Below, in pieces: positions 9,714 through 24,330 of a stretch of DNA of 32,000 nt (the first letter of the stretch is position 1; every line of letters starts with the position of its first letter). The notes under the pieces were generated by a model that saw only the letters and a program-made list of their open reading frames with translations, did not search any database and was not told the origin of the DNA. This stretch comes from Breoghania sp. L-A4 (lineage in GTDB: Bacteria > Pseudomonadota > Alphaproteobacteria > Rhizobiales > Stappiaceae): NCBI RefSeq assembly GCF_003432385.1, contig NZ_CP031841.1, positions 4,103,549 through 4,135,548 on the forward strand, read 5' to 3'. A program made the position numbers and the translations under genes.

Positions 9714-10844
9714 TCAGATCACGTAGGATGCCAGCGGCGCGAAGCCGTTGAAGCCGGTCGTGGAATAAGTGGTGGTGTAGGCGCCGCAGGCCTCGATCAG
9801 CACCTTGTCGCCGATGGACAGCGACACGGGCAGCTCATAGGGCGCCTTCTCGTAGAGCACGTCGACGCTGTCGCAGGTCGGACCGGCCAGCACGCAGGGG
9901 GTCTTCGCGTCGCCGTCGCGCTCGGTGCGGATCGGATAGCGGATCGCCTCGTCCATGGTCTCGGCCAGGCCGTTGAACTTGCCGATGTCGAGATAGACCC
10001 AGCGGATCGGATCGTCATCGGACTTGTTGGAGATCAGGACGACCTCGGCCTCGATCATGCCGGCGTTGCCGACCATGCCGCGGCCCGGTTCGATGATGGT
10101 CCTGGGCAGACGGTTGCCGAAGTGGCGCGACAGGGCGCGGAAGATCGCCTCGCCATAGGACGCGACGCCCGGCATCTTCTTGAGATAGTCGGTCGGAAAA
10201 CCGCCGCCCATGTTGACCATGGAAAGCTGGATACCGCGCTCGGCCATCTCGCGGAAGATCGCGGCGGCGGAGGCCAGCGCCTGGTCCCACGCGTCCACGT
10301 TGCCCTGCTGCGAGCCGACGTGGAAGGACACGCCATAGGCGGTGAGGCCCGAGCGGTGGGCGGATTCCAGAACACGGGGCGCCATTTCCGGCGCGCAGCC
10401 GAACTTGCGCGACAGCGGCCATTCGGCGCCCGCGCCATCGCACAGGATGCGGCAGAACACCTTGGAGCCCGGAGCGACGCGGGCGATCTTCTCGACTTCC
10501 GCCTCGCAATCGACCGCGAACAGGCGCACGCCCATTTCAAAGGCGCGCAGGATGTCGCGCTCCTTCTTGATGGTGTTGCCGAACGAGATGCGGCCGGCGC
10601 CCGCGCCGGTGGCCAGAACCATTTCGATCTCGCCCACGGAGGCGCAGTCGAACGACGAGCCCAGGCGGGCCAGCAGGTTGAGGATTTCCGGCGCCGGGTT
10701 GGCCTTCACCGCGTAGTAGACGGAGGTGTCGGGCAGCGAATGGGCGAAGGCTTCGTAGTTGTCGCGCACGATGTCGAGATCGACAACGACGCAGGGGCCG
10801 TCGTCACGTCGGCTGCGGAGGAAATCGCGAATGCGGTCGGTCAT
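9714..10844 (-). CDS. Type III PLP-fold (alanine racemase-like) ornithine/lysine decarboxylase
   Basis: YYAVKANPAPEILNLLARLGSSFDCASVGEIEMV (PLP lysine), SFHVGSQQ, MGGGFPTDY, EPGRGMVG, CVLAGPTCDSVDVLY; 376 aa. Confidence 0.9.
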   Translation of the reverse strand: MTDRIRDFLRSRRDDGPCVVVDLDIVRDNYEAFAHSLPDTSVYYAVKANPAPEILNLLARLGSSFDCASVGEIEMVLATGAGAGRISFGNTIKKERDILRAFEMGVRLFAVDCEAEVEKIARVAPGSKVFCRILCDGAGAEWPLSRKFGCAPEMAPRVLESAHRSGLTAYGVSFHVGSQQGNVDAWDQALASAAAIFREMAERGIQLSMVNMGGGFPTDYLKKMPGVASYGEAIFRALSRHFGNRLPRTIIEPGRGMVGNAGMIEAEVVLISNKSDDDPIRWVYLDIGKFNGLAETMDEAIRYPIRTERDGDAKTPCVLAGPTCDSVDVLYEKAPYELPVSLSIGDKVLIEACGAYTTTYSTTGFNGFAPLASYVI

Positions 10845-11440
10845 GGATCCGTTCCCAATATGTAATCACGTCGCAGGGGCGGATGCGATCGCGCCCGCCC
10901 CTGCGCGATGGAAACGCAAGGACGCGCGGCGATACATCGCGCGAACGGTCGAGCGAACGGCAAGAGCCGACTGCTGTCCCGCGTGTGATGCCTTGGATTG
11001 GAACGGGAATCCCCGTTTCCGCACGGCTGGCAAGGAGGTAAGTGCCTCTTCAGTGACACCGGGGGTTGGAGACCCCGACTGAGACCAAAAAAGCCCTCTT
11101 ACGTCGTTGCTTTAAGCCGTCCGGTTTTGCCGCCTTGGGACCCTTGAGGATCCGGGTAAGGCGACTGCCACTTATTCGATGGACGACCACGGGCACGTGC
11201 GAATTTGGGCACGCATTGCATCGCGCCCTTTTGTTCCGAATGCAAGATTTTTTTGCGCCCGGGGGCAAGTTTTTTCGGGCGGGATCCGGCCCGGGGCCCA
11301 GCCGCCCCGCCCGCGACCGCGTCATGCCGCCATTCGTTGAGGAACCAAGTCCCCTCCCCGCCGTTGATTTGGCTCAACGCGGGCGGCGCGGCTTCGGCCG
11401 AGACTGTTCGTTACACTCCAACCAGCGACGGACACGCAGC

Positions 11441-11902
11441 ATGAGCGAGCATCCAGAAAATACCCAGAGCCAGGAACCGGACGCGGACGACGGGCCCGTG
11501 CTGTCGATCTCGCCCGAGCAGGTCTGCTTCCTGATCGTCAAGGCGCGCGAATACGACGCCAAGGAGGGGGAAACGGATATCGACTCCGGTTCCAACGCCG
11601 CCGACGACAGGATGATCGACGTGCTGGACGAGGGCGGCGACGACCCGGTGGAGGAGGAGATCATCTCGTTCATCGACGCGATGAACGAGGACGAACAGAT
11701 CGATCTGGTAACCATCGCCCGGCTGGGCCGCGGCGACGGGACGTTGGCCGATTGGGACGAATTGCGCGAGGAAGCCGCAGGCGGTCACAACGACCGCACC
11801 GCGCAGTATCTGCTCGGCATTCCGCTGCTGCCCGATTATCTCGAGAACGGCCTGGGCGAGCTGGGCCATTCCTGCGAGGAATTCGAGACGGGGCGGCTTT
11901 GA
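11441..11902 (+). CDS. Small acidic DUF3775-like protein
   Basis: MSEHPENTQSQEPDADDGPVLSISPEQVCFLIVKAREYDAKEGETDIDSGSNAADDRM...EEIISFIDAMNEDEQIDLVTIARLGRGD; strongly acidic, in frame with the longer track ORF 11066..11902. Confidence 0.7.
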   Translation: MSEHPENTQSQEPDADDGPVLSISPEQVCFLIVKAREYDAKEGETDIDSGSNAADDRMIDVLDEGGDDPVEEEIISFIDAMNEDEQIDLVTIARLGRGDGTLADWDELREEAAGGHNDRTAQYLLGIPLLPDYLENGLGELGHSCEEFETGRL

Positions 11903-12070: not shown

Positions 12071-12110
12071 CCCTCACCCCAACCCTCTCCCCATGGGAGA
12101 GGGGGCGGAT
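12071..12110. repeat. Palindromic intergenic repeat, type CCCTCACCCCAACCCTCTCCCCATGGGAGAGGGGG
   Basis: Near-identical to the copy at 17027-17064. Confidence 0.75.
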
Positions 12111-12156: not shown

Positions 12157-13056
12157 TCACGGCATCGCCAGAAAGCGGCGCACCAGCGCGACGAAGGCCT
12201 CGGGTCGCTCCTCGTGCGGCAGGTGACCGGCGTCGGGCAGGATCACCGACCAGCAATCGGCCAGCCGCATCTGGATGTTGACCGAGTTCTTCACCGGCAG
12301 CACGCCGTCGCGCGATCCCCAGACCGACAGCACCGTGTGCCGCAATTCCGGCAGGCGCTTCTGCAGGGCGCCTTCGGAGAACTGGCGCAGGGTCTTGAGA
12401 AAGGCGCGCTCGCCATGATCGCGCAGCAGCAGGCCGTAGCAGTGATCGACCAGCGCCGCGTCGGGCACAGTGGCGGCGTAGGATTTTCTCAATTTGGAGC
12501 GGAAGATCGCCTTGCCGGTGCCGTGCCGGCGCAACAGCCCCGCGACCGCCCAGCGGATCAGCCCGCTGCGCACCAGCTTCTCGATTGAATGGGCGCCGCC
12601 GGCGATCCCGACGCTGTTGACGATGATCAGCCGGCCGACGAGATCCGGCGCGCGCAGGGCCATGGTGATCGCCACCGCCGCGCCGAAGGAACTGCCCGCC
12701 ACGTGGACCCGCGCGATCCGCAACGCGGCGCACAGCGCGATGATCCTGCCGGCGATGGCGTCGAGCGAATAGTCCTCGCCGGTTTTCGACGAGCGGCCGT
12801 AACCGGGCATGTCGACAGCCACCACCCGATGGCTTTGCGACAGCGGCGCGAAGACCGCCTGCCAGGTGGTCATGCACAGCGGGATGCCGTGCAGCAGGAG
12901 GATCGTCTCGCCCTCACCGGCCTCGCGATAGCAGATCTCGAAGCCGTCCAGGCTCACGGTCTGGGCATGAGGGTACATCTCGTCGCGGAATCCCCCCGCG
13001 TGGAGATCGGTCTTGGCGACCCGCGATCCGGAAAGATTGCGCGGCAGGAACATCAT
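12157..13056 (-). CDS. Alpha/beta hydrolase
   Basis: ILLLHGIPLCMTTWQAVFAPLSQSHRVVAVDMPGYGRSS, nucleophile elbow VAGSSFGAAVAI, late SVWGSRDGVLPV and DAGHLPHEE (Asp/His); start overlaps the upstream stop (TAATG). Confidence 0.85.
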   Translation of the reverse strand: MMFLPRNLSGSRVAKTDLHAGGFRDEMYPHAQTVSLDGFEICYREAGEGETILLLHGIPLCMTTWQAVFAPLSQSHRVVAVDMPGYGRSSKTGEDYSLDAIAGRIIALCAALRIARVHVAGSSFGAAVAITMALRAPDLVGRLIIVNSVGIAGGAHSIEKLVRSGLIRWAVAGLLRRHGTGKAIFRSKLRKSYAATVPDAALVDHCYGLLLRDHGERAFLKTLRQFSEGALQKRLPELRHTVLSVWGSRDGVLPVKNSVNIQMRLADCWSVILPDAGHLPHEERPEAFVALVRRFLAMP

Positions 13057-14795
13057 TACCCCCTTTGCGCCGCCTGCGGCGCGGCGACGCCTTCGCGCCT
13101 GAGAAAGCCGCGCAGCACATCGTTGAAGGCCTCGTGCATCTCCCAGTTCATGAAATGCGCGCCGCCGCGCATCAGCGCCAACTCGCTGCCCGCAATGGCG
13201 CGCTGCAGCGCGTCTGCGTGATGCAGCCGCACCAGCCGGTCCTGCTCACCATGGATGATCAGCGTCTCGCAAGCGATCTCCGACAGCGGGTGTGCGGGCC
13301 GGTGCGTGTTCCCCGCCAGCGTCTGGGCGGAAAACGACGCCGCGTCCTGGCGGTTGACCCGGTAAAACGTCTTCAGCTTGTAGAGCTCGTCGGCCCTCTC
13401 GCCCCGATAGTCCTCGGAGAACACCCAGGGGATCGTCTCGTCGAACAGCGCCTGCATGCCCTCGCGCGCAGCCTTCTCCCGCCACGCAGCCGTGGTTCTC
13501 AGGATCAGATCGTCGGCCGTCTCGTAAGCCGAGACCAGCACCAGCCTGCCGGCGAGATCCGGGCGCAGCAACGCCACCTGCTGGGCGATCAGCCCGCCCA
13601 GCGCCAGCCCGACGATGCTGACGCCACGCTCGCCGAGATGATCAAGCAGCGCGATGACATCGCCGGCCATGTCCCGCGTGTTCGCGCTGTCGGGCAGCGC
13701 GGAACTGCGCCCCGCGCCACGGTTGTCGACGGTGATCAGCCGGAAGGCGTCGTTGAGGGTGCCGCACTGGCGCGACCAGAAGCTGGTGTCCGTGCCCACC
13801 GGACAGAGGAACAGCACCGGCGGGCCCTCGCCTTCGGTGCGGTAGCACAGCGAGCCGCCGTGGCTGAGCGGCAGCCGCTCGGCATGCACCTTGCGGTAGA
13901 AATGATCGAAGATGTTGGCGACAAGCGAGCCGCGGTCGGGGATGCTCTCGAGCACCTCGCTGGGATCGTAGTGCGTCATGCCGCCATCGAGATAGTCGTT
14001 CTCGTAGCGGTGGGTGTAGGGATCGAACTGGAAGATGTAGGGAATGGCGCGCGGCTTGCGGCGCTCAAGCAGGATCAGCACGACCTCGCTCGCCACCAGC
14101 GAGGCCGCCATCAGGCAGGCGGAGGCGATGGATGGGCCGGTGCCGCGGAGAAAGTCGGTGTTGGAGTCGCCCTTTGACACATCGAAGTAGCTGATGTGCG
14201 CCAGCTTCGGCACGACGGAACAGGCGTAGCGCAACTGCTTTTCCATTGGCGGCATGTCGTCCGTGATGCCGCAGAAGGTCTCCATGTCCATGCCGTCGGG
14301 ATCGAACACCTGCATGGAGGCGCTGAAGCCGACGGGCGAGCCCATGAGGATGTAGAGCCCGCGGGCGCGCGCCGCGCGATGCAGCCTCAGGTGATCCTCG
14401 ATGGCGTAGAAATCGATGGCGTCGATGCAGATGTCGGCATCGCCCAGAACGGCATCGGCGTTGGCGTCGCAGAATTTCTCCGCGAACGTCCGCACGCTGG
14501 CGTCGGGATTGATGGCCAGGATCTCACGCTCCACCACATCGACCTTGCGCGCGCCCACGGTGGTGCTGTCGGCGCCCGCCTGGCGGTTGATGTTGGCGAG
14601 CTCGAAGGTGTCGGGATCAACGATATTGAAGTTGCCCACGCCCATGCGCGCCAGCGTCACAAGACAGTTGGAGCCGATGCCGCCGGTGCCGACGACGGCG
14701 ACGGTGGCGCGCGCGAGCCGCTCCTGCTCGGCCTCGCGCAGGATGCCGATGTTGCGCGAAAAGGATTCCCGGTACGTCTCGCTCAGCGCCATCAT
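13056..14795 (-). CDS. Fusion protein: E1/ThiF-like adenylyltransferase-fold domain + C-terminal alpha/beta hydrolase
   Basis: N-term VAVVGTGGIGSNCLVTLARMGVGNFNIVDPDTFELANINRQAG (GxGGxGS and D-F-x3-N-x2-R-Q); C-term ITVDNRGAGRSS, IVGLALGGLIAQQVALLRP, LIIHGEQDRLV, GGAHFMNWE. ATG 14795 overlaps the previous stop as ATGA. Confidence 0.85.
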   Translation of the reverse strand: MMALSETYRESFSRNIGILREAEQERLARATVAVVGTGGIGSNCLVTLARMGVGNFNIVDPDTFELANINRQAGADSTTVGARKVDVVEREILAINPDASVRTFAEKFCDANADAVLGDADICIDAIDFYAIEDHLRLHRAARARGLYILMGSPVGFSASMQVFDPDGMDMETFCGITDDMPPMEKQLRYACSVVPKLAHISYFDVSKGDSNTDFLRGTGPSIASACLMAASLVASEVVLILLERRKPRAIPYIFQFDPYTHRYENDYLDGGMTHYDPSEVLESIPDRGSLVANIFDHFYRKVHAERLPLSHGGSLCYRTEGEGPPVLFLCPVGTDTSFWSRQCGTLNDAFRLITVDNRGAGRSSALPDSANTRDMAGDVIALLDHLGERGVSIVGLALGGLIAQQVALLRPDLAGRLVLVSAYETADDLILRTTAAWREKAAREGMQALFDETIPWVFSEDYRGERADELYKLKTFYRVNRQDAASFSAQTLAGNTHRPAHPLSEIACETLIIHGEQDRLVRLHHADALQRAIAGSELALMRGGAHFMNWEMHEAFNDVLRGFLRREGVAAPQAAQRG

Positions 14796-15601
14796 AACCC
14801 TCCCGCGGCAACCGCGCGCCGCTCTTGCTGGCGCGACGCGAAGCGCGCGCGGAACCGCGCGCCATAGGCGTTCAGACGCGCCGCCGAGCTCCTGCCGACA
14901 GGCACGAAGACGTCGCCCGCCGCAATGTCCAGTTTCGAGCGGACAAAATCGTTGATCCGGCGATCGGGCGCTTGCGGCAAGGGGTTGTAGAAGAAGTCGC
15001 ACTCGTTGCGCAGGATCAGGTTTTCGGGCTCGAAGGTCACATCCGGGTCGTATTTGTCGACCACCGCGCGGGCCACGCGGATCACGTCCGGCGGCGGGAT
15101 GTCCCGCGCGTTGGGATAGACATGCGCGAGCTTCCCCAGCATGGAGTAGACCAGCGGGCTTTGCGAAATCGAGGTGACATAGACCGTGTCGCCGTGCCGC
15201 GCGACGAGACCGGAGATCTGTTCGAGAAGGGCGAGAAACAGGAACGACAGAAGCCCCGTGCCCTGGATGTCGCGCGAGAAGTTCATCGAACACAGATGCA
15301 CGATGGTGCCGTTTATGCCGCTGCCCGGCCCGCAGTCGAAGTCCGTGTCGCAGCCGGCGATGCCCTTGAAGACGCCGTCCTCGAAGACAAGCGCCAGCGC
15401 GGTTGCGAGATACAGCGGTGAGATCTTGAAGATGGCGCGCATGCGCGCGACGTGGCTCCCGTCCCAGCCGCGCGACAGCGTGGCGATGGTCAGGATCTCG
15501 TCCTCGAGCGCACGCAGCTCATTGCGATACGCCTTGGCGTCGCGCAGGATCACCAGCTCGTAGCGGCGAAACGGGATCCTTTCCGCGCCCGTAAACATCA
15601 C
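14792..15601 (-). CDS. Unassigned protein, possibly a divergent GNAT-like fold
   Basis: 269 aa from GTG 15601 (or ATG 15598). Contains FSRDIQGTGLLSFLFLALLEQISGLVARHGDTVYVTSISQSPLVYSMLGKLA; overlaps both neighbouring CDSs, implying it belongs to the operon. Confidence 0.7.
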   Translation of the reverse strand: MMFTGAERIPFRRYELVILRDAKAYRNELRALEDEILTIATLSRGWDGSHVARMRAIFKISPLYLATALALVFEDGVFKGIAGCDTDFDCGPGSGINGTIVHLCSMNFSRDIQGTGLLSFLFLALLEQISGLVARHGDTVYVTSISQSPLVYSMLGKLAHVYPNARDIPPPDVIRVARAVVDKYDPDVTFEPENLILRNECDFFYNPLPQAPDRRINDFVRSKLDIAAGDVFVPVGRSSAARLNAYGARFRARFASRQQERRAVAAGGL

Positions 15602-16650
15602 GCCTCTCCGCTCAGATGGCGCACCGCATCGTCCAGACAGCGGGCCGCGCCGGCCACATAGGCTTGCCGCCAGCGCGGATCGTCGGGGCAGAAAGCCCGC
15701 GTCATCCGCGCCCGCGCCCTGGCGAGCAACGCCGGGTCATGCGCGAAATGCCGGTGGGCGATGGTGTCCAGCCGCAGCGCCAGGAAGGTGCGCAGCGCAG
15801 GCCCCGTGCCGCACTCGAAGGTAACGCCGCAGAGATCGCGGCATGAGATCCCGCGCATCAGACCGGTGAGCAGATCGCCACGCACGCTGTAGAGCGCGTC
15901 GTCGCCCGCGTGGCTCATGGTGATCGGCGTCCGGAAGATCGCCTCGGCGCCTGCGACATCGGCCGCGGTGGCGAGCAACTGGCATTGACCGTAGCTCCCG
16001 ATGCCGGAATGCAGGTCAACGAAAATCGCCTTGTCCAGCGCGCCTTCGCCAAGCATGCCCGAGAGATAATCCGCAAGCGCGCGGATCTCGGGCTGCACCG
16101 CGTCACCGCCGTAAAACAGCCCGTCTGGGTTGACGAACTGACCGCCCGCCAGCGCCTCCTTCAGCGCGGATATGCCGCCCAGGCCCATCAGCCTGAGAAA
16201 AAAGACCGGCATCCAGAACGCGCCGAGCGCGCGGAATTTTCCCACGCTGTTGACCCAGTCATCGATGGCGGCGGCGCGGGCGTCCACCGTCCGGTCAACC
16301 GCTGAATGGTCGAGGACATTGCGGTTGAGATCGACATTGGCGCCGTTCACCCGGCGGCGCGCCTTCATGCCCGCGGGATTGATGACGTGCACCACGAGCA
16401 CGTGGACGGTTTCGAGGCTCCACGCCCGCGCGCGCAGAAACGCGATCTGCGCGGCGCTGCCGCAATAGCCCTCGATGCCGTGCAGCCCGCTGGTGACGAC
16501 CAGCTTGCGCGGCGACGTCAGATCGCCCGCGTGCGCCACGTCGATGACGTCATCGGCGCCGCCGATGGGCAGGTGATCAACGCGCAGATCCAGATCGCGG
16601 CAAAGATCCAGGAACGCCGCGCGGGCGGCCTCAAAGGTGGGGTGGAAATC
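15598..16650 (-). CDS. DUF2817 / M14-like zinc carboxypeptidase-type protein (5' end unresolved)
   Basis: FHPTFEAARAAFLDLCRDLDLRVDHLP...RKLVVTSGLHGIEGYCGSAAQIAFLRA...VHVLVVHVINPAGMKARRRVNGANVDLNRNVLDH...AIFVDLHSGIG. Track ORF runs open to 17220 through repeats, so the domain-based 5' boundary (~16650) is given. Confidence 0.75.
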   Translation of the reverse strand, partial: DFHPTFEAARAAFLDLCRDLDLRVDHLPIGGADDVIDVAHAGDLTSPRKLVVTSGLHGIEGYCGSAAQIAFLRARAWSLETVHVLVVHVINPAGMKARRRVNGANVDLNRNVLDHSAVDRTVDARAAAIDDWVNSVGKFRALGAFWMPVFFLRLMGLGGISALKEALAGGQFVNPDGLFYGGDAVQPEIRALADYLSGMLGEGALDKAIFVDLHSGIGSYGQCQLLATAADVAGAEAIFRTPITMSHAGDDALYSVRGDLLTGLMRGISCRDLCGVTFECGTGPALRTFLALRLDTIAHRHFAHDPALLARARARMTRAFCPDDPRWRQAYVAGAARCLDDAVRHLSGEA

Positions 16651-16725
16651 GGAAACCTCATCGCCTGTGGTCCGGGGCGCGCCTCGCGCATGTCGGATCG
16701 CCGAAACCGCCGCTCCAACCGCGCT

Positions 16726-16870
16726 GTCATCCCGGCCTCCGAGCCGGGACCCAGTAGCCGCCGGCCCCTCGGCTCTTGCCGTTGGTTCTCGGCCTCGTTG
16801 TGGCGACGGGTCATCGCGCGGGCTGTCGGTTACTGGGTCCCGGGTCTCGCCTTCGCTCGCCCGGGATGAC
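16726..16870. repeat. Intergenic inverted repeat element (arms 16726-16756 and 16831-16870)
   Basis: gtcatcccggcctccgagccgggacccagta versus reverse complement of tactgggtcccgggtctcgccttcgctcgcccgggatgac. Confidence 0.8.
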
Positions 16871-16948
16871 AATCGGGGCGAAGCCTGGACATCGCGGGAT
16901 GACTGCGCAGGGTGGTGTTCGCTCGCCCGGAGGTCAGCGCCCGACAAA

Positions 16949-17170
16949 CCTCTCCCATGGGGAGAGGTCGGCGCGCATGCGCCGGGTGAGGGGTGAAAAA
17001 CTCGACGTATCCAGGAGAGCGCTGATCCCCTCACCCCAACCCTCTCCCCATGGGAGAGGGGGCGAGCCGTTCGCCGCGAAGCCACTTGCGGTGACCCTGC
17101 TCCAAGGACAGCGAGGGACCGCCTCCCCGACAACGCCTCACCCCACACTCTCCCCATGGGAGAGGGGGTG
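16949..17170. repeat. Three clustered palindromic repeats (16949-16995 inverted orientation, 17027-17064, 17136-17170)
   Basis: Core CCTCACCCC(A/AC)ACYCTCTCCCCATGGGAGAGG repeated three times in ~220 bp. Confidence 0.75.
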
Positions 17171-17206
17171 CCGCCATCCGTCGTGGGGCGCGCGTCCGGT
17201 TGTGCC

Positions 17207-18463
17207 TCACGCCACCGCATCGGCCGGCTCCCGAATGTAGGCCTCGGGCGGCGTGCGTTTCCCCGCCTCCATGGCGTCGGTGTCCACCACCAGCATGACC
17301 TTGTCGTACTTCGTCGGCGCGTTGATCCACTTCATCTCGTCCTCGAGATGATGCCAGTCGCGCGTCATGATGGTTTGCAAATCGTCGATGCTCTTCACGT
17401 CGCCCTTCCACTGCTGCGAGCGGTTGTAGAAGGCGTCGTCGTGGCAGCTCTTCACGCAGGCCAGGCACTCGATGCAATCGTCGGGGCGGACCGAGACGGC
17501 GGGGCCCTTGGGCAGCCGCGCCAGCACCCCCTTGGGACAGACGTAGACGCAGTCGTAGCAGCTGGTGCATTTGACCGGATCGATGATCGGCTCGAAGTGG
17601 CTGCGGTAATCGCCCCTCGTGATCCAGTGGCGCGGCGTGGTCTTGTAGATCGTCGAGCTGCCGCAGCCGTCGAGCGAAATCAGCAGCACCACGCCGCCAA
17701 TCGTCGCCGTCCAGATGGCGAATTCGCTCAAGGTGAAGTCGTGGAACAGGCCGACCAGCGCCAGACCGGCGACGCCGACGCCGAAGTGGCTCAGCGTCTT
17801 CAGCCACAGTCGCTCCTCGGGCAGCACGTCCCACAGGGCGAACCAGGTGAGATGGAACAGCAGGATCAGCCCCATGGTGATCAGCGTGTAGGCGGGGAAG
17901 AAGAAGATCAGAAAGAAGATCGTCATGGCGTAGACCAGCGCCGTGGAGACCGCCTGCTCCATGCGGTCCCAAAAGCCGAACTGGGCGCGGGTCATCTCCG
18001 AGGTGCGGCGGTAGTTGCCGGCGATATAGGCGGGCAGATCATCGAAATGGGTCGGCCCCCACACGAGCTTGAAGCCGGTGCGCGCCTGCACCTCCTTGGC
18101 GTTGACGCCGGGCGCGGCATAGGGCGGCGCGATGATCCGCCGCGCCAGCACCTTGTCCTTGATGCCGGAGACGTTGATGGCGTCGATGATGTCGAATTCG
18201 TTGAACTCGTTCATGCCGGCCGCGCACCAGACGTTGGAGCCCTTGGAGTTGGCGACGATCAGGTAGCAGTCGATGCCGGAGAGGCGCTTGAGCAGCCGGT
18301 GCACGGTGAGCGTGTAGTTGCCGCTCAAGAAGACCGGCGAATGCTCGTCGGGGCGGCCGATCTCGCGCAGGCCCAGCTCGCAGGGGAAATTGAAATGCCG
18401 GAACAGCACGTGGAAGATCTCGTAGAACCTGAGCTTGATCATGCCCCAGATCCGGCCCGCCAT
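17207..18463 (-). CDS. HgcA-like corrinoid-binding membrane protein fused to HgcB-like 2x[4Fe-4S] ferredoxin (HgcAB-like fusion)
   Basis: HgcA-type cap-helix signature NVWCAAGM (nt 18212-18235) within LSGIDCYLIVANSKGSNVWCAAGMNEFNEFDII; transmembrane segment block; then CTSCYDCVYVCP (17534-17569) and CIECLACVKSC (17444-17476). Confidence 0.85.
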   Translation of the reverse strand: MAGRIWGMIKLRFYEIFHVLFRHFNFPCELGLREIGRPDEHSPVFLSGNYTLTVHRLLKRLSGIDCYLIVANSKGSNVWCAAGMNEFNEFDIIDAINVSGIKDKVLARRIIAPPYAAPGVNAKEVQARTGFKLVWGPTHFDDLPAYIAGNYRRTSEMTRAQFGFWDRMEQAVSTALVYAMTIFFLIFFFPAYTLITMGLILLFHLTWFALWDVLPEERLWLKTLSHFGVGVAGLALVGLFHDFTLSEFAIWTATIGGVVLLISLDGCGSSTIYKTTPRHWITRGDYRSHFEPIIDPVKCTSCYDCVYVCPKGVLARLPKGPAVSVRPDDCIECLACVKSCHDDAFYNRSQQWKGDVKSIDDLQTIMTRDWHHLEDEMKWINAPTKYDKVMLVVDTDAMEAGKRTPPEAYIREPADAVA

Positions 18464-18464
18464 G

Positions 18465-19118
18465 TCACTTCCTCCCCACGATGAGCTGGAAGGAGGACAT
18501 CGGCAGTCTCTTCGTCTCCTCGATGGAAAAGCCCGCCGCCTCGATGACGCCGCGCAGGTCCTTGATGGGGAAGCAGGCCCGGCGCAGGATGGCGAACTGC
18601 GGCACCCACATGATCGCCATGACCACCCGGTAGAGCGCCCGCAGCGCCCTGTTCTCCGGCCACACCTCGTCGGCGATCATGATGCGCCCGCCGTCTTTCA
18701 GGATCGTGCGGCAATCGCGGAAGATGTAGTCGAGGTATTCGCGTGACAGCTCGCCCACCACCATGGTGGAGACGATCGCGTCGAGGCTTTCGGGCTCGAA
18801 ATATTTGGGCAGGTCGGTGACGCTGTCCTTGATGATGGTGAAGCGGTCGGCGCAGTCGTTCTTCGCGATCGTCTTGCGGCACTCCTTGAGCATGCTCTCG
18901 GAGATGTCCATGCCGGTGACGGTGGCGCCCTTGTTCACGCATTTGACGCCCAGCGAGCCGGTGCCGCAGCCGATGTCCAGCACCCGGTCGCCGGGGCGGA
19001 CGCGGTTCGCGATCTCGGTCTTGATGCGGTCGATCTTGCCGCCGGTCAGAAGCTTGACCGACCAGTCGTAACGCTCGGGCGCGTATTCGACCCAGACCAT
19101 CCAACTGTACATCAGCAT
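18465..19118 (-). CDS. Class I SAM-dependent methyltransferase, corrinoid protein-associated (CpaM-like)
   Basis: VRPGDRVLDIGCGTGSLGVKCVNKGATVTGMDISESML; stop codon is separated by 1 nt from the ATG of the HgcAB-like CDS. Confidence 0.8.
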   Translation of the reverse strand: MLMYSWMVWVEYAPERYDWSVKLLTGGKIDRIKTEIANRVRPGDRVLDIGCGTGSLGVKCVNKGATVTGMDISESMLKECRKTIAKNDCADRFTIIKDSVTDLPKYFEPESLDAIVSTMVVGELSREYLDYIFRDCRTILKDGGRIMIADEVWPENRALRALYRVVMAIMWVPQFAILRRACFPIKDLRGVIEAAGFSIEETKRLPMSSFQLIVGRK

Positions 19119-19146: not shown

Positions 19147-20610
19147 TCAGACCCTCTCCCCGGCGGCCGGCGCCGCGCGCGCGTCGCGGTAGCCGCGCAA
19201 CTCGCCGCTCAACTCCGTCGATGTGGGGAAATGCGCCCGGTCGAGCACGGGGAAGATGACGATCTCGACGCCCGGCGGCGCCTGCACCGCGATACCCGTC
19301 TCCTGATCGTGCTGCTTGGACACGATGATCCGCTTGAGCGCGCCGCCCAGCGTGTAGGTCTGCGGCGGCAATGCTTCCGCGCCGAGCCGCGTCACGCTGA
19401 TCGCACACGGCGGCGAGGCGCCATTCGTCGCCTGGCGCGCCTCGATATGCGCCGACTGGGATTCCGCCACCCAGGTAAAATCCGTCCGCGTGGCGCCCGC
19501 GTTATCAAGAGAAAGCGGAGCTGCGGCGGCGAGGCCCGTGTCGTCATGCGGCTCGGTGATCGGGGTCGGTGCGCCGCAATACATGCAGGTGTTGTCCCGC
19601 GCGATGCCGACCACCTCCGCATCCAGCCCGTAGCGCCGCACGAGCGTTCCGCCACACGAGGCGCAGCGCGTGTCCGACACGCCATCCTTGAAGGTGTTGC
19701 CGACGTAGCAGAAGCGAATGCCCGCCTGACGCGCCATGTGCTGCGCCATCAGCAGGATTTCCGGATCGGTCCGGGTGGTGTTCACATAGAGATAGGCGGG
19801 GTGGAAGCCGACGTAGTGCAGCGGCACCCGGTCGCCGAGGTTCTCCAGCACCCAGTCGTTGGTGCGGCCGATCTCCTCCGCGTTGTCGTTGCGGCCGGTG
19901 ATGATGAGCTGGCTGATTTCCAGATGCCGGCCGGAGGCGTGCACCTGCTTGATGCGGTCGAGCACCGGCTGCAGCCGCGTGCCGCCGGTGAACTTGCGGT
20001 AGAAGCGGTCGTCCATCGACTTCAGCGAGATGGAGAAGATGTCGATGCAGCCGATCAATTCGTCGACCGGCGCCTCCTCGATGTAGAAGGCGGACTTGTA
20101 AAGCGTGCGGATACCGGCTGCCTGCGCCAGCCTCGAGGTCTCGACCACGAATTCGTGCCAGACGACGGGATCGTTGTAGGTCCAGGAAATCACGCCGATG
20201 CCGGTGGCAAGGCAGGTCTCGACGATCTGCTCAGGGCTGTAGTGCTTCACGTCGTGCGGGTTGAGATGGCGAACCTGCGAGGTCTTCCAGTTCTGGCAGA
20301 AGTCGCAGGACATCATGCAGCCGATGTTGCCCAGGCTGAGGATGCGCGCGCCGGGGCGGTAGTGGTAGACGGCCTCGGTCTCGATGAACTCCATCGTCGC
20401 CTCGACCGACTTGCCGTAGTTGAAGGTGCGCAGCTCCCCGCCGACGTTGCCGCGCACGCCACATTTGCCCATCTTGCCCGGCGCGATCCGGCAATTGCGC
20501 GGGCTGAGCTTGCACACCACGCCGTCCGCGGTGCCCTCGGCCCTTTGCCAGAAATCGGCCGGCGCGTGTTCGCGCGTCCATTGGACCTCCGGGATGATAT
20601 TCATGGTCAC
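19147..20610 (-). CDS. AmmeMemoRadiSam / PFL-activase-like radical SAM protein
   Basis: CRIAPGKMGKCGVRGN; radical SAM motif GCMMSCDFCQNW (CxxxCxxC); later Cys pairs CASC and CMYC; ~487 aa. Confidence 0.85.
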   Translation of the reverse strand: MTMNIIPEVQWTREHAPADFWQRAEGTADGVVCKLSPRNCRIAPGKMGKCGVRGNVGGELRTFNYGKSVEATMEFIETEAVYHYRPGARILSLGNIGCMMSCDFCQNWKTSQVRHLNPHDVKHYSPEQIVETCLATGIGVISWTYNDPVVWHEFVVETSRLAQAAGIRTLYKSAFYIEEAPVDELIGCIDIFSISLKSMDDRFYRKFTGGTRLQPVLDRIKQVHASGRHLEISQLIITGRNDNAEEIGRTNDWVLENLGDRVPLHYVGFHPAYLYVNTTRTDPEILLMAQHMARQAGIRFCYVGNTFKDGVSDTRCASCGGTLVRRYGLDAEVVGIARDNTCMYCGAPTPITEPHDDTGLAAAAPLSLDNAGATRTDFTWVAESQSAHIEARQATNGASPPCAISVTRLGAEALPPQTYTLGGALKRIIVSKQHDQETGIAVQAPPGVEIVIFPVLDRAHFPTSTELSGELRGYRDARAAPAAGERV

Positions 20611-20742: not shown

Positions 20743-22050
20743 CTAATCGAGTATCAGTTCGGACAGTCCGAAGTTGACCTCGCCCTCCCTAGGCGGGCGC
20801 AGGTCGTCCTCGGTATAAAAGCGCTCCCACACCGCGTTGGAGTAAAGCTGGCCCTTGCGCGTCAGATGCACGTCGTACTCGCCGTCGACCAGATAGTCCT
20901 CGGCCGCCAGTTCATCGATGATCTCGCCGTAGACCAGCTTCATCGGCACGCCGAAGCGCGCCTGGAAATCGTCCTTGTAGACGTTGCCGACCTTCAGCCC
21001 CCGGATCATCACCCGGCGCATTTCCTGGTCCTTGGACAGATAGGTGGAGAAATCCAGCACCGGCTCGCCGCGATTGATGCGCGCGATGTAGTCCTTGATG
21101 TCGGTGATGTTGGTGTACATGAACTCTTGGATCGCCGACTTGGACGACACGCCGAAACCGATCATCGGCCACGTGCGCCAGTAGTAGTCGAGGAAGCGGC
21201 AATAGATCCTGCACCGGTCGGGATGGTAGTAGCCCGAGGTGCTGCCCGTCACATAGCCGGCCGCCTCCAGCAGGTTGAAGGCGGTCAGCGCCATGGCCTT
21301 TTCCTCGGCGATCTTCGGCAGCTTCATGCCGCGCGCCACGATCCACTTGTGGTAGGCGGTGTTGGTCCAGACCTCGAGCGGATAGGCGGTGATGCAGGAA
21401 AACTCGAGATCGATGGCGCGCCTGACCGAATCCTCCCAGATCTCGCTGGTCAGCCCGATGAGCGGATAGATCAGATCCACATTCACATGGGTGAAGCCGG
21501 AGTTGCGGATGATGTCGACGGCCTTGTCGATATCCTCCCGGCCATGCGGCCGGTTGGTATCCTTGAGGATCTTCTCATCAAAGCTCTGGATGCCGATGGA
21601 AAAGCGGTTGAAGCCGGCGTCAAACAGCGCGTCGACCTTCTCCTGCTCGACGCTCCTGGGGTCGAACTCGATGGCGATTTCCGCGTCCGCCGCCACATCG
21701 AACGTGCCGCGCACGGCCTCCAGGATGCGGATCAGCTGCTCCGACGACAACAGCCCGGGCGTGCCGCCGCCGAAATAGATCGCCTTGATCTCGAAGCGCG
21801 GAAACACCGGATTGTCCGGAAACCGCTCGATCTCGACGCACAGCGCCTGCACGTATTGCTCGCGCAGGTCGAGCTTTGTGTTCACGTAGACGGTGTAGTC
21901 GCAGAAATGGCACTTGGTCGAGCAGAACGGGATATGGATATAGATCGATGCGTCCTGCATCTTGAAGAAATCGTTGAACTCGCTGTAGGTATATTTGAAC
22001 GGATACGTATGAATGTTACGTCTGATATATTTCTCTGATGCATCGGACAT
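20743..22050 (-). CDS. HemW/HemN-like (coproporphyrinogen III oxidase family) radical SAM protein
   Basis: YIHIPFCSTKCHFCDYTVYV (CxxxCxxC), YFGGGTPGLLS, EFDPRS, RFSIGIQSFDEKILK, YPLIGLT. Confidence 0.85.
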   Translation of the reverse strand: MSDASEKYIRRNIHTYPFKYTYSEFNDFFKMQDASIYIHIPFCSTKCHFCDYTVYVNTKLDLREQYVQALCVEIERFPDNPVFPRFEIKAIYFGGGTPGLLSSEQLIRILEAVRGTFDVAADAEIAIEFDPRSVEQEKVDALFDAGFNRFSIGIQSFDEKILKDTNRPHGREDIDKAVDIIRNSGFTHVNVDLIYPLIGLTSEIWEDSVRRAIDLEFSCITAYPLEVWTNTAYHKWIVARGMKLPKIAEEKAMALTAFNLLEAAGYVTGSTSGYYHPDRCRIYCRFLDYYWRTWPMIGFGVSSKSAIQEFMYTNITDIKDYIARINRGEPVLDFSTYLSKDQEMRRVMIRGLKVGNVYKDDFQARFGVPMKLVYGEIIDELAAEDYLVDGEYDVHLTRKGQLYSNAVWERFYTEDDLRPPREGEVNFGLSELILD

Positions 22051-22089: not shown

Positions 22090-23595
22090 TCAGGCAAGCA
22101 GACGCAAATGCTCGAACGACGTGTCCGGGCTGCCGGCATGCTTGCGATTGTTGGGCATCATCGGGCGGCCGCAGGAGACGAAGAGCGCGCTCAGGCGGCC
22201 CCGGTCGCGTGCGCGCAGGGCCTCGCCGCCACGCGCGATGATCCGGACCGCGCTGCGCACGAGCGCGAACTGGAAGGCGCATTTGGCCGGATCCGGCGCG
22301 TTGATGTCGCCGGTGGCGATGGTGTTTTCCTGCTTGCAGCCGCCACCGCAGATGTAGCGGATGGAGCAGCGCGAGCACACCGGCTGCGCGTTGACGCCCG
22401 TCCGCCAGGCCGCCACTTTGGCGTCATCAACGCCCGCGTGAAAGTCGCCGACCTGGAAGCCCTCGTCGCCCACCAGCCGGTGGCACGGCATGATCGACTT
22501 GTCGGGCGAGAAGGTGAAATAGTTGCGCCCGCCGGAACAGAAGCCGTTGGCGAACTCGCCGTCCAGGATCATCCGCATCACCGTTTCCACCTCGAGGATC
22601 CCCTTGAAGCGGTTTGCGGGCGTGAACAGATCGAGATACCGGTCGTGCAGCGCTTCGAACTCGGCCTCGATCTTGGCGTTGTAAGGTGCCTGCCGGTCCT
22701 CCAGATCCGCGGTGTCGAAGGCCGCGTCGCCATAGACGGCGGCGTGGTTTTCCTCCGCCACCGCGGCCGGGAGAATCTGGAACCAGTCGAAAATGTTCAT
22801 GTCGTAGAGATGCCGCATGTCCTCGACCAGCGAGGAGTCGGGATAGGGCACGTAGGTCATCCGCGCCACCAGCGTGATGTCCTCGGACGCCGCGCGCACC
22901 TGCTCGCAGTTGCGCGCGATCGCCTCCTGCGAACCGCGCCCCGACTTGCGCGGCCGGTTGCGGTCGTGCGTCTTCGCGCCGCCGTCGATGGACACGGACA
23001 CGATGAACCGGAACCGGTGAAACAGCGACAGCTCGCGCCCGGTCAGCTTCGTCGTCAGGTTGGTGGAGACCCGGTAGATGAACTCGATGCCCAGCCGCGC
23101 GCGCATCTCCAGCGAGCGCGCGCACAGCTCCTCGATGACCGGAAAATTCATCAAGGGCTCGCCGCCGAAAAACTCGAACCGCACGGTCTCGCCCGGGCGT
23201 GTCTTCTCCTCGATGAAGGCGACAATGGCGTCGACGTCCACGTCCTTCGACAGCTTGCCCTTGAGCCGGCCGTAGTCGCCGCCTTCGGCGAAACAGTAGG
23301 TGCAGCCCAGGTTGCAGAAGGCGGTGAGATTGATGTTCAGCGCCAGATTGGCGCCGGCCAGCGGATCCGCCTTCGACAGCGCGCGGGCGTTGTAGGGCGC
23401 CAGCACCCCGGAGGCCCGCAGGCTCTCGAGTTCCGCCTCGGCCTCTTCCGGCCAGACCGGGTTGTCGCGGGTCAACTGGTCGCGCAGGGCGTTCGAGATC
23501 GTGAAAAGACGATGGGACTCACTGTCCAGTAAAACGGTGCCGCCGGTTTCCGGATCGACAGTGACGATCTCAAAATTTCGGGGCTCAATGCCCAT
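22090..23595 (-). CDS. Radical SAM/SPASM maturase-like protein with N-terminal PqqD/RRE-like region
   Basis: LNINLTAFCNLGCTYCFAEG (CxxxCxxC), FEFFGGEPLMN, VSVSIDG, and C-terminal SPASM pattern CSRCSIRYICGGGC; N-term GGTVLLDSESHRLFTISNALRDQL...ESLRASGVL is PqqD-like. ATG at 23595 preferred. Confidence 0.85.
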   Translation of the reverse strand: MGIEPRNFEIVTVDPETGGTVLLDSESHRLFTISNALRDQLTRDNPVWPEEAEAELESLRASGVLAPYNARALSKADPLAGANLALNINLTAFCNLGCTYCFAEGGDYGRLKGKLSKDVDVDAIVAFIEEKTRPGETVRFEFFGGEPLMNFPVIEELCARSLEMRARLGIEFIYRVSTNLTTKLTGRELSLFHRFRFIVSVSIDGGAKTHDRNRPRKSGRGSQEAIARNCEQVRAASEDITLVARMTYVPYPDSSLVEDMRHLYDMNIFDWFQILPAAVAEENHAAVYGDAAFDTADLEDRQAPYNAKIEAEFEALHDRYLDLFTPANRFKGILEVETVMRMILDGEFANGFCSGGRNYFTFSPDKSIMPCHRLVGDEGFQVGDFHAGVDDAKVAAWRTGVNAQPVCSRCSIRYICGGGCKQENTIATGDINAPDPAKCAFQFALVRSAVRIIARGGEALRARDRGRLSALFVSCGRPMMPNNRKHAGSPDTSFEHLRLLA

Positions 23596-24330
23596 GGCGT
23601 GCCTCACACTTTTCAGGTGTTCGACCGAGCGAGCAGACGCGCTGCAAAGGGGCGCGTTTGAAAAACTAATTTATATATTTACAACCTTAAGTTAGGTTAT
23701 ACTGATGATGCAGCTTAAAATTGCTTCTGTCAATCTGGCACGGTTAAAATTGGCGGTGACGCTTCTGCCAGCGTTTCATCTATATGAAATAGATAAGCTT
23801 TTAGAGAAACCTCCCCGCTGGAGCCGCGCCCGGGCGCGGCACGTGCGACCGCATCTGGAGCGTGTTCGGGCGGCCGCGGCGGCGGGCGGTTGCAGTACGC
23901 GATGAAGGCCCCGGCAAGGCGGCACCCGCGGTGCGCGCGCGAGACGTCCGGCCCGCGTTCGGCCACCCGTGCGCGACGGTTTCCCGTCAGGCGACAACCA
24001 TGGGTTGACAAAATCACGGATTCTCGGAAATGTTGTGTTTTCGAGAATTCACGAGACAGACACCCGGGACTGCTGAGAAAATTCTCATAACAACTATCGA
24101 TGAGAAGAAATTATCCGTTTCCTCGACAAGACATACAGGCCACTGCAAATGGACGCGATTTAAACCATGCGCTAAGCTTGCCATGATCGCCTCGCCATTT
24201 GACATGTCCTTGGCGCTTTGCCGCGCCGCCCGAAAGGCGCTCCGGCCGCGATCAGCCGCCGCGCCCCATGCCGGCGCCGGCTTCAAGAGAGATCGCATCA
24301 CGTCAGGCCTCGGCAGAAGGCAGTCGCGCA

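Follow-up and report, generated by a model that had tools for sequence, protein, structure and literature searches.

The window analysed here is a stretch of 32,000 nucleotides from the alphaproteobacterium Breoghania sp. L-A4 (contig NZ_CP031841.1, positions 4,103,549 to 4,135,548; 65.7% GC). On its minus strand lies a gene whose predicted product is identical (100% identity and coverage) to a RefSeq protein that NCBI and UniRef name "HgcAB-like fusion protein [Breoghania sp. L-A4]". The genes around it are transcribed in the order radical S-adenosylmethionine (SAM) enzyme of the SPASM type, HemN/ChuW-like radical SAM enzyme, AmmeMemoRadiSam (AmmeMemo)-type radical SAM enzyme, the methyltransferase CpaM, the fusion gene, DUF2817 protein, GNAT-fold protein, ThiF-hydrolase and alpha/beta hydrolase (Table 1). 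An earlier note had described the fusion protein as a single chain resembling HgcA and HgcB, the proteins of mercury methylation. It had suggested a paralogous membrane corrinoid methyltransferase with a built-in electron donor, acting on another substrate.

Domains and motifs of the fusion protein

The fusion protein carries the cap-helix motif NVWCAAGM, and the reverse complement of this segment, read directly from the DNA, is AAC GTC TGG TGC GCG GCC GGC ATG. The methionine in place of the HgcA lysine, as described in the earlier note, is present in both DNA and protein. The hydrophobic membrane block described there was also found and comprises four predicted transmembrane (TM) helices. Hydropathy placed hydrophobic segments at residues 171-189, 193-211, 227-245 and 248-266, which match the four helices of an AlphaFold2 (AF2) model (residues 164-187, 190-209, 221-240 and 245-265). 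The membrane block is followed by two CX2CX2CX3C motifs, CTSCYDCVYVC at residues 299-309 (then proline) and CIECLACVKSC at residues 330-340 (then histidine). All eight cluster cysteines are invariant among 49 homologues, which is consistent with the proposed built-in electron donor. The protein has 12 cysteines in total, the last of which is C340, and the 78-residue tail beyond it is free of cysteine, as the earlier note had stated.

The AF2 model was built on 49 homologues without cofactors and had a predicted local distance difference test score (pLDDT) of 92 and a predicted template modelling score (pTM) of 0.86. It consists of an alpha/beta corrinoid-type domain (residues 1-160), four long helices (164-266), a ferredoxin fold (292-347), a subdomain at about residues 348-400, and a disordered tail. 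The subdomain forms a C-terminal extension that is predicted with pLDDT above 90 over most of residues 350-400. Among the 49 homologues, K353, D355, V356, K357, R368, E376 and W379 of this extension are near-invariant; Pfam gave no significant match to it, only RloB at E = 0.15. Across the 49 sequences, which come from several phyla, 42 residues of the protein are invariant. The AAPGV loop is conserved, and the GC content at third codon positions (GC3) of the gene is 0.93, typical of an expressed host gene.

A D-x-C-G-S motif lies at residues 265-267 and onwards (residues 265-267 are nt 17663-17671), at the cytoplasmic end of TM helix 4, where HgcA has (N/F)FTG(S/C)S. D265 and G268 are invariant and C267 is kept in at least 90% of the sequences. 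In the alignment, the motif adds a conserved thiol that is specific to the subclade with methionine in the cap-helix motif (the Met-type subclade).

Relationship to HgcA and HgcB

The fusion protein was scored with NCBIfam models against their curated equivalog cut-offs. It passed NF043039 (HgcAB_like) with 350.1 bits against a cut-off of 285 (E = 1.9e-104), residues 15-345 aligning to positions 3-349 of the 350 in the profile. It failed NF040863 (HgcA; 144.6 bits against 275, residues 25-187 only), NF040864 (HgcB; 34.2 bits against 99) and NF003195 for the gamma or large chain of CFeSP, a corrinoid/iron-sulfur protein (acetyl-CoA decarbonylase/synthase gamma; 63.9 bits against 306, last 120 or so profile residues only). 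Pfam matched the protein to CdhD (E = 4e-10) and to several Fer4 families. The E-values for NF043039 and CdhD indicate that the similarity is not due to chance. A CdhD-type corrinoid domain, a cap-helix cysteine, TM helices and a dicluster ferredoxin are combined in one chain, and the NF043039 score bears out the single-chain HgcA-HgcB-like fusion proposed earlier.

In a Foldseek search of the PDB, the top match of the AF2 model was the published computational HgcAB model 9a0b_A (E = 1e-11, 277 columns). The corrinoid domains of CFeSP large subunits came next, with root-mean-square deviations of 2.2-2.5 Å over about 125 residues and a superposition limited to the corrinoid domain. In a phmmer alignment, Cys80 falls on the cap-helix threonine of CFeSP 4djd_C, and it also aligns with the HgcA cysteine. 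The same relation to the cap threonine has been proposed for HgcA Cys93 (PMC7305189). Like the strictly conserved cap-helix cysteine of HgcA, Cys80 is invariant in the 49 sequences. By sequence, Cys80 would correspond to Cys93 of HgcA, for which a role as Co-thiolate ligand has been proposed, and is itself predicted to ligate cobalt. The superposition, the match to 9a0b and the position of Cys80 support the reading of the chain as a corrinoid protein. The cofactor-free model is compatible with a corrinoid site near the cap-helix cysteine, a structural check that the earlier note had suggested. No experimental HgcA structure exists; by sequence, the PDB matches were CFeSP and generic ferredoxins only.

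A neighbour-joining (NJ) tree of the corrinoid and TM region placed the clade of the fusion protein apart from the true HgcA sequences P0114-P0120, with the fused proteins P0111-P0113 as its sisters. P0114-P0120 were the weakest matches of the homologue search and are genuine HgcA (401-457 bits on NF040863, motif NVWCAAGK-GTF). The NJ method is crude; the same split is present in the published maximum-likelihood tree of Lin et al. 2023, in which the fused HgcAB, Breoghania included, form a separate clade. In a phylogenetic comparison of the kind that the earlier note had asked for, the protein fell outside the HgcA clade. This position, together with failure at the HgcA and HgcB cut-offs and passage of the HgcAB-like cut-off, agrees with the suggested paralogy. 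As judged from its sequence, the fusion protein is a membrane-anchored single-chain corrinoid/iron-sulfur protein and a paralogue, not an orthologue, of HgcA plus HgcB. The fusion architecture, the paralogy to HgcAB and the protein name already stand in databases and the literature, and the non-mercury view is published and curated. Lin et al. 2023 mention the fused gene of Breoghania sp. and list the organism as 'aerobic hgcA+ (fused-hgcAB+)'. As far as sequence analysis can test it, the earlier reading is supported as the rediscovery, correctly interpreted, of a known family.

Several features distinguish the fusion protein from the mercury methylase. Methionine ends the cap-helix motif in all 108 close homologues with an N.WC motif (91 NVWCAAGM, 15 NVWCAVGM, one NVWCATGM and one NIWCAVGM) and is followed by NE(F/Y), whereas the seven true HgcA matches all have NVWCAAGK. 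In these alignments, methionine for lysine is a signature of the clade rather than a one-off substitution. Across the wider fused family the lysine position holds V, A, G or other residues and never K; lysine is almost confined to unfused sequences of the true HgcA type, the listed exception being P0244, which has two Fe-S motifs. The motif of confirmed methylators in the high-stringency list of Capo et al. 2022, N(V/I)WC(A/S)(A/G/S)GK, always ends in lysine, and NVWCAAGM does not match it. HgcB has a strictly conserved Cys73 about 12 residues past cluster 2; the C73A exchange abolishes activity and the C94A/C95A double mutant loses 95% of it (PMC7305189, PMC11588087). Neither Cys73 nor Cys94/95 has a counterpart in the fusion protein. 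HgcA has five TM helices (PMC7305189), compared with the four of the fusion protein, and in the full-length alignment the ferredoxin domain stands in place of HgcA TM5. The even number of helices would keep both soluble domains on the same side of the membrane.

A different arrangement was seen in P0135, a 356-residue fused protein from the representative library with the motif NVWCAAGG-KHF. It has a 31-residue tail with five cysteines (...CSCLCRPICCSID), where most fused proteins have none, and by its sequence may be a fused protein that has kept thiol handling of the HgcB kind.

Going by an hgcA motif screen, the Breoghania protein would be taken for a functional fused HgcAB mercury methylase in an aerobe. 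It does have the catalytic cysteine and the N-V-W-C-A-A-G core, together with a TM domain and both clusters; its best structural match is the HgcAB model, and Lin et al. list the organism as aerobic hgcA+. We nevertheless consider this very unlikely. The protein fails the HgcA and HgcB cut-offs and the lysine-ended motif list, lacks the HgcB cysteines required for activity, and is encoded in a biosynthetic cluster without metal-handling genes. The two carriers of a fused hgcAB that were assayed in culture, Pyrococcus furiosus and Methanococcoides methylutens, made no methylmercury, although Podar et al. 2015 caution that the result for P. furiosus is not proof of enzymatic inability.

The loss of residues needed for mercury methylation could also point to a decaying, non-functional relic of hgcAB, and a run of about 490 bp of repetitive extragenic palindromic (REP)-like sequence lies before the next gene. 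This explanation is scarcely credible. The open reading frame (ORF) is intact and identical to the RefSeq entry, the predicted fold is confident, and GC3 is that of an expressed gene. The Shine-Dalgarno sequence and the translational coupling to cpaM described below are conserved, and a relic is effectively refuted by the 42 residues held invariant across several phyla.

The CpaM partner and the surrounding cluster

The gene cpaM encodes a class I SAM methyltransferase of the corrinoid protein-associated type. A spacer of 1 nt separates its stop codon from the ATG of the fusion gene, and a Shine-Dalgarno sequence, GGAGGA, is located inside its 3' end, which suggests translational coupling. By tblastn, CpaM was found directly upstream of the fusion gene in 16/16 genome loci and 22/22 metagenome loci (38/38). 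It is also upstream in the loci L004, L024 and L025, whose fused genes are not of the Met type and have no radical SAM enzyme beside them. In P0027, P0096, P0157, P0168, P0180 and P0189, a CpaM domain scoring above the cut-off is fused to the N-terminus of the corrinoid protein; P0201 has a CpaM domain too, at 177.4 bits just under the cut-off of 180. Searches of PDB sequences returned the generic relative MitM for CpaM and the generic relative PflA for the AmmeMemo-type enzyme. The earlier description of the fusion protein as a membrane corrinoid methyltransferase holds for the membrane and the corrinoid domain, but the methyltransferase proper is more likely to be the adjacent CpaM, and the fusion chain would then be a methyl carrier.

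Chains of 590-650 residues that combine CpaM, corrinoid domain and ferredoxin recur both inside and outside the Met-type clade (P0096 corresponds to L003:10001-11941). These natural three-part fusions are ready-made constructs for a methyl-loading test.

In a scan of 1.84 billion representative proteins, 1047 relatives reached E <= 1e-3 and 94 reached E <= 1e-30, among which the Met-type group amounted to just two full-length clusters at 50% identity. Sixteen loci were found in a search of one genome for each of 185,579 species, and 22 more came from metagenomes. The genome loci belong to Stappia, Rhizobium, Telmatospirillum, Bradyrhizobium sp. Ai1a-2, several Acidobacteriota and Streptosporangiaceae, and to metagenome-assembled genomes of Chloroflexi, Anaerohalosphaeraceae and Desulfobacteraceae; Kineosporia sp. 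NBRC 101731 was added from the homologue list. The Met-type group is rare yet phylogenetically wide and includes cultured aerobes.

The gene for the AmmeMemo-type enzyme was detected by tblastn on 23/23 contigs of at least 12 kb and was absent from short contigs alone. Twelve of the 16 genome loci have the SPASM enzyme together with both the HemN-like enzyme and the GNAT-fold protein. A common gene set was found in L001 (a marine alphaproteobacterium), L002 (Thermoanaerobaculia), L003 (Chloroflexi), L023 (Bradyrhizobium) and L026 (Acidobacteriaceae). In most loci the cluster has about 12 genes, with three radical SAM enzymes, the GNAT-fold protein, a deacylase, the ThiF-hydrolase, and either an ATP-grasp ligase or a non-ribosomal peptide synthetase (NRPS); L026 has an extra adenylation-thiolation-thioesterase (A-T-TE) NRPS module with MbtH. 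Two further cluster types retain just the triad of radical SAM enzyme, CpaM and fusion protein, and in the Desulfobacteraceae locus this triad is accompanied by NRPS, ATP-grasp and SbnA/SbnB-like genes.

Two variations in gene content were observed among these loci. An M20 peptidase occupies the DUF2817 slot in Acidobacteriota and Bradyrhizobium (L002:12091-13536, L023:9367-10818 and L026:116-1579), while DUF2817 is the form of marine Alphaproteobacteria. The exchange is likely a non-orthologous replacement of a deacylase step that is paired with the GNAT-fold protein. In the Terriglobia or soil type (L045:2800-18100, L022:4230-16416), the triad stands with thiamine pyrophosphate-dependent E1 alpha/beta subunits, a hexapeptide-repeat (LbH) protein and a Cys/Met pyridoxal phosphate enzyme. 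This type also holds either a fatty-acid desaturase with an AMP-binding enzyme or two more radical SAM enzymes.

Table 1 Features of the fusion gene and its neighbours in the window
Feature	Coordinates (nt)	Strand	Basis and remarks
HgcAB-like fusion protein gene	17207..18463	minus	418 aa; ORF, NF043039, RefSeq identity
Cap-helix motif NVWCAAGM	18212..18235	minus	aa 77-84, Cys80; Met84 at HgcA Lys position
Membrane block, four predicted TM helices	17663..17974	minus	hydropathy, AF2, alignment with HgcA and fused proteins
Dicluster ferredoxin domain	17423..17590	minus	aa 292-347; Pfam Fer4_7, Fer4_10; 2x CX2CX2CX3C
Cys-free C-terminal extension	17210..17422	minus	aa ~348-400 folded, clade-specific; disordered tail after
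CpaM, corrinoid protein-associated class I SAM methyltransferase	18465..19118	minus	NF043040 253.5 bits, cut-off 180
AmmeMemoRadiSam-type radical SAM enzyme	19147..20610	minus	TIGR04337 269.5 bits, cut-off 220, aa 19-350
HemN/ChuW-like (class C type) radical SAM enzyme	20743..22050	minus	Pfam Radical_SAM; HemN_C 21.8 bits, cut-off 24
Radical SAM/SPASM enzyme, peptide-maturase type	22090..23607	minus	first operon gene; PapB-like 184 bits (below cut-off), TIGR04085 49 bits
DUF2817 protein	15598..16713 (start approximate)	minus	Pfam DUF2817 E = 1.5e-57; L001 orthologue 371 aa
Cluster-specific GNAT-fold protein	14792..15601	minus	no Pfam/NCBIfam family; in 12/16 genome loci, directly downstream of fusion gene
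ThiF-type adenylating domain + alpha/beta hydrolase fusion	13056..14798 (start about)	minus	Pfam ThiF E = 6e-43, Abhydrolase_1
Alpha/beta hydrolase, last cluster gene	12157..13056	minus	Pfam; kept in most loci
Divergent pair: large no-family protein + LAL-type ATP-grasp ligase	24199..27935 (ligase ~26650-27935)	plus	Pfam ATP-grasp_4, LAL_C2

The HemN/ChuW-like protein scored 205.9 bits on HemW, against a cut-off of 205.4, and 217.6 bits on ChuW/HutW, below the cut-off. The AmmeMemo-type enzyme has a conserved extra C-terminal region of about 110-135 residues, which aligned to about residue 463 in all loci and had no Pfam match. The DUF2817 protein is likely a deacylase. The GNAT-fold protein has just 12 homologues among 5.8 billion proteins; its AF2 model (pLDDT 88.5) matched the GNAT proteins YhbS, AAC(2')-Ia and NatD in Foldseek (E ~5e-6). 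Orthologues of the ThiF-hydrolase, 564-584 residues long, are present in L001, L002, L003, L023 and L026, and orthologues of the divergent pair in L001, L002 and L023.

The first protein of the divergent pair (24199-26652, plus strand; about 740-817 residues) has a weak zinc-ribbon-like CxxC...CxxC pattern near residues 661-694 and is 35-39% identical across several phyla. Pfam gave just two weak sub-threshold matches for the 817-residue protein, which may serve as a scaffold or perhaps even be what the SPASM enzyme acts on.

The REP-like palindrome CTCTCCCCATGGGAGAGGG occurs in four copies in the window, against a chance expectation of none. Three of them occupy the gap of about 490 bp (16720-17206) between the fusion and DUF2817 genes, which abut in relatives, and the fourth lies at 12085-12103, just past the last cluster gene. 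The ORF at 15598..17220 is artificially extended through these repeats. At 10909-11210 on the minus strand, Rfam models identified a speF leader (RF00518, 41 bits) and the alphaproteobacterial small RNA ar45 (RF02347, 49 bits) upstream of an ornithine-decarboxylase-like gene (9714..10844); the start of a plus-strand ORF (11066..11902, DUF3775) lies opposite ar45 and overlaps it. The ornithine-decarboxylase-like gene and the downstream GNAT and saccharopine-dehydrogenase-like genes are probably a separate polyamine operon. In a scan for promoters and terminators, one promoter-like site upstream of the main operon (23733..23705) was rejected as evidence, since the counts equalled the shuffled expectation, and horizontal transfer was set aside because base composition gave no clear island signal.

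The occurrence of CpaM and fused proteins without a radical SAM cluster in L004, L024 and L025 would fit an alternative in which the pair by itself transfers methyl groups to an inorganic acceptor, such as a metal or metalloid (As, Se, Te, Sb or similar), with the biosynthetic genes as unrelated neighbours. CpaM is weakly similar to ArsM and to TehB-type methyltransferases. In Streptomyces sp. CNQ-509 (CP011492.1; L004:9336-17252), a short-type fusion protein of 358 residues with the motif NVWCASAG is encoded with a CpaM-like methyltransferase beside genes for a P-type ATPase, a DUF169 protein, a regulator of the ArsR type, a MerA-like pyridine nucleotide-disulfide oxidoreductase, MerR and MerB; a transposase gene is close by. 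These genes could reflect a genuine metal link of that subclade or the chance insertion of a mer element. For the Met-type subclade we consider the alternative improbable. Its radical SAM partner is present on every long contig, gene order is kept across Alphaproteobacteria, Acidobacteriota, Actinomycetota and Chloroflexota, and family scans of the window proteins detected no metal transport or resistance genes in the window. The similarity to ArsM and TehB is that of a generic class I methyltransferase, far under the cut-offs. In other subclades, CpaM and the fusion protein could conceivably work alone on metals or metalloids, but this fits the fixed biosynthetic context of the Met-type subclade poorly.

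The dicluster ferredoxin domain raises another possibility, namely that the fusion protein is mainly a membrane partner in electron transfer or activation, serving the three radical SAM enzymes as dedicated reductant or maturase target with a corrinoid that carries no methyl groups, or that it is itself post-translationally modified by the AmmeMemo-type enzyme. Radical SAM enzymes need a low-potential donor, the AmmeMemo-type enzyme falls in a PflA-like activase group whose members act on proteins, and both it and the fusion protein have clade-specific C-terminal extensions. A role of this kind would leave unexplained why the protein is universally paired with, and repeatedly fused to, a SAM methyltransferase, and why the cap-helix cysteine motif is strictly conserved. 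For electron supply, a plain ferredoxin would suffice. We regard it as unlikely.

Proposed role and comparison with known systems

The reading that we favour, with modest confidence, is that the fusion protein is a non-mercury HgcAB-like paralogue which, with CpaM, forms a SAM-fed methyl-corrinoid module serving a specialised-metabolite cluster. On grounds of homology and fold, the N-terminal CFeSP-type domain would bind a corrinoid with Cys80 under the cobalt ('Cys-on'). The two [4Fe-4S] clusters of the ferredoxin domain would reduce Co(II) to Co(I). CpaM would then transfer the methyl group of SAM to Co(I), as suggested by its universal adjacency, the Rosetta-stone fusions and the use of SAM as the methyl source of genuine HgcAB (PMC11588087). 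More speculatively, the methyl-corrinoid would hand its methyl group to an organic substrate that the AmmeMemo-type radical SAM enzyme handles or activates, and the triad would then act like a split cobalamin-dependent (class B) radical SAM methylase. Mercury is presumably not the intended substrate of the module; the conserved cluster of radical SAM and peptide-type genes and the absence of methylmercury formation in the tested fused-hgcAB organisms both accord with the other substrate that the earlier note had proposed.

The product of the cluster is probably a modified amino acid or small peptide. This suggestion, which is speculative, is based on a protect/deprotect logic of the GNAT-fold protein with DUF2817 or M20, on ThiF adenylation, and on the LAL ligase or NRPS with MbtH.

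Several observations weigh against the methyl-corrinoid module. The cofactor-free AF2 model shows the cap-helix segment as a loop, predicted with lower confidence (pLDDT 75-84). B12 genes were not seen in the window, and no cobalamin riboswitch was detected in the window or the operon leader, where Rfam matches were just the speF leader and ar45. An all-versus-all comparison of small ORFs upstream of the SPASM gene (23500-24300) and in the equivalent gaps of L001, L002 and L003 identified no conserved precursor of a ribosomally synthesised and post-translationally modified peptide; the cross-locus matches were all antisense to an EamA gene. With SAM as donor, purified HgcAB methylates the cobalamin it carries and does so with no helper methyltransferase (PMC11588087), and the role of CpaM could therefore be another. 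Co-occurrence does not demonstrate that the radical SAM enzyme and the corrinoid protein share a substrate, and corrinoid binding, Fe-S content, methyl donor and acceptor are all inferred for the Met-type subclade. The negative methylmercury tests cover distant fused relatives in culture only.

Beyond the module itself, we put forward as a tentative proposal, which is possible rather than probable, that the fusion protein, CpaM and the AmmeMemo-type enzyme constitute a membrane-anchored split radical SAM methylase of three proteins, or a related Co-C transfer system, that is portable across at least three kinds of natural-product cluster, some of them in culturable aerobes. If this were true, it would add a new architecture to B12-dependent radical chemistry and hint at methylated peptide-like metabolites of an undescribed family. 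Carbon-centred methyl transfer in secondary metabolism would then be what the HgcA family natively does, with mercury methylation as a side branch.

What is added here to the known family is a compact subclade with an invariant N(V/I)WCA(A/V/T)GM-NE signature and a folded C-terminal extension, along with its constant CpaM neighbour, its AmmeMemo-type partner and the cluster shared by most loci. Searches of full text, outside which most subscription journals lie, found no literature on the function of CpaM, the function of fused HgcAB, or the cluster, and a preprint on sinefungin proved unrelated; the same text held no description of the Met-type signature, of CpaM as a universal partner, of the radical SAM enzyme as an obligate one, or of the multi-phylum cluster. 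The native role of HgcAB, and the reason for its existence, is a long-standing open question of mercury biogeochemistry, and the fixed association with CpaM and a radical SAM enzyme in biosynthetic clusters gives an HgcA paralogue a concrete function that can be tested. Surveys of hgcA also suffer contamination by fused HgcAB-like genes, and for the Met-type subclade an exclusion signature can be given: GM-NE rather than GK-GTF, four TM helices, no HgcB Cys73 or C-terminal cysteines, and cpaM upstream. As an annotation the gene is ordinary; its context makes a non-mercury role of the HgcA family experimentally approachable in aerobic, culturable bacteria. Carriers that can be grown aerobically and manipulated are Breoghania sp. 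L-A4, Stappia sp. TSB10P1A, Bradyrhizobium sp. Ai1a-2 and Kineosporia sp. NBRC 101731.

The closest known relatives are the HgcAB-like fusion proteins of NF043039, the 'fused HgcAB' of Podar et al. 2015, for example in Pyrococcus furiosus (Q8U2U9) and Methanococcoides methylutens. They share the CdhD-type corrinoid domain with the cap-helix cysteine, the TM helices and the 2x[4Fe-4S] ferredoxin; they also have no lysine after the cap motif, usually lack C-terminal cysteines and have a CpaM gene directly upstream. The Met-type subclade differs in its invariant GM-NE(F/Y), the D-x-C-G-S after TM helix 4, the folded C-terminal extension of about 55 residues, and an obligate link to an AmmeMemo-type radical SAM enzyme and biosynthetic clusters. 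The window protein is about 31-40% identical to the other fused types.

With HgcA and HgcB of Pseudodesulfovibrio mercurii ND132, the window protein shares a CFeSP-homologous corrinoid domain with Cys93 or Cys80 in place of the cap-helix threonine, the N-V-W-C-A-A-G core, the AAPGV loop, a membrane domain and two CX2CX2CX3C clusters. HgcAB ultimately draws its methyl group from SAM, which is also the proposed source here, via CpaM. HgcA and HgcB are two proteins, whereas the window protein is one chain with methionine at the position of Lys97, and its identity to HgcA is 32-42% over just 35-43% of its length. HgcAB needs no separate methyltransferase (PMC11588087). To our knowledge, hgcAB is not embedded in radical SAM clusters.

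The large subunit of CFeSP (AcsC/CdhE), which works in the Wood-Ljungdahl pathway with MeTr and RACo, has the same fold in its C-terminal corrinoid domain (Pfam PF03599). The logic is also alike: Co(I) receives a methyl group from a methyltransferase, Co(II) is reduced again by an Fe-S centre, and a separate acceptor takes the methyl group. Unlike CFeSP, the window protein has no TIM barrel and no N-terminal [4Fe-4S] domain, has cysteine rather than threonine under the cobalt, and is membrane-anchored. The CFeSP partner is a TIM-barrel methyltransferase that uses methyl-tetrahydrofolate, whereas CpaM is a class I SAM enzyme.

The class B cobalamin-dependent radical SAM methylases (Fom3, PhpK, GenK, TokK and TsrM) offer a functional analogy to the triad of CpaM, corrinoid protein and radical SAM enzyme, with no claim of membership. 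In these enzymes, which are encoded in natural-product clusters, SAM methylates Co(I) and the methylcobalamin methylates a substrate activated by radical SAM chemistry. The B12-binding domain PF02310 was detected by Pfam in none of the three radical SAM proteins of the cluster. The class B methylases have that domain and the radical SAM domain joined in a single soluble protein, whereas here the carrier is a CdhD-type membrane protein.

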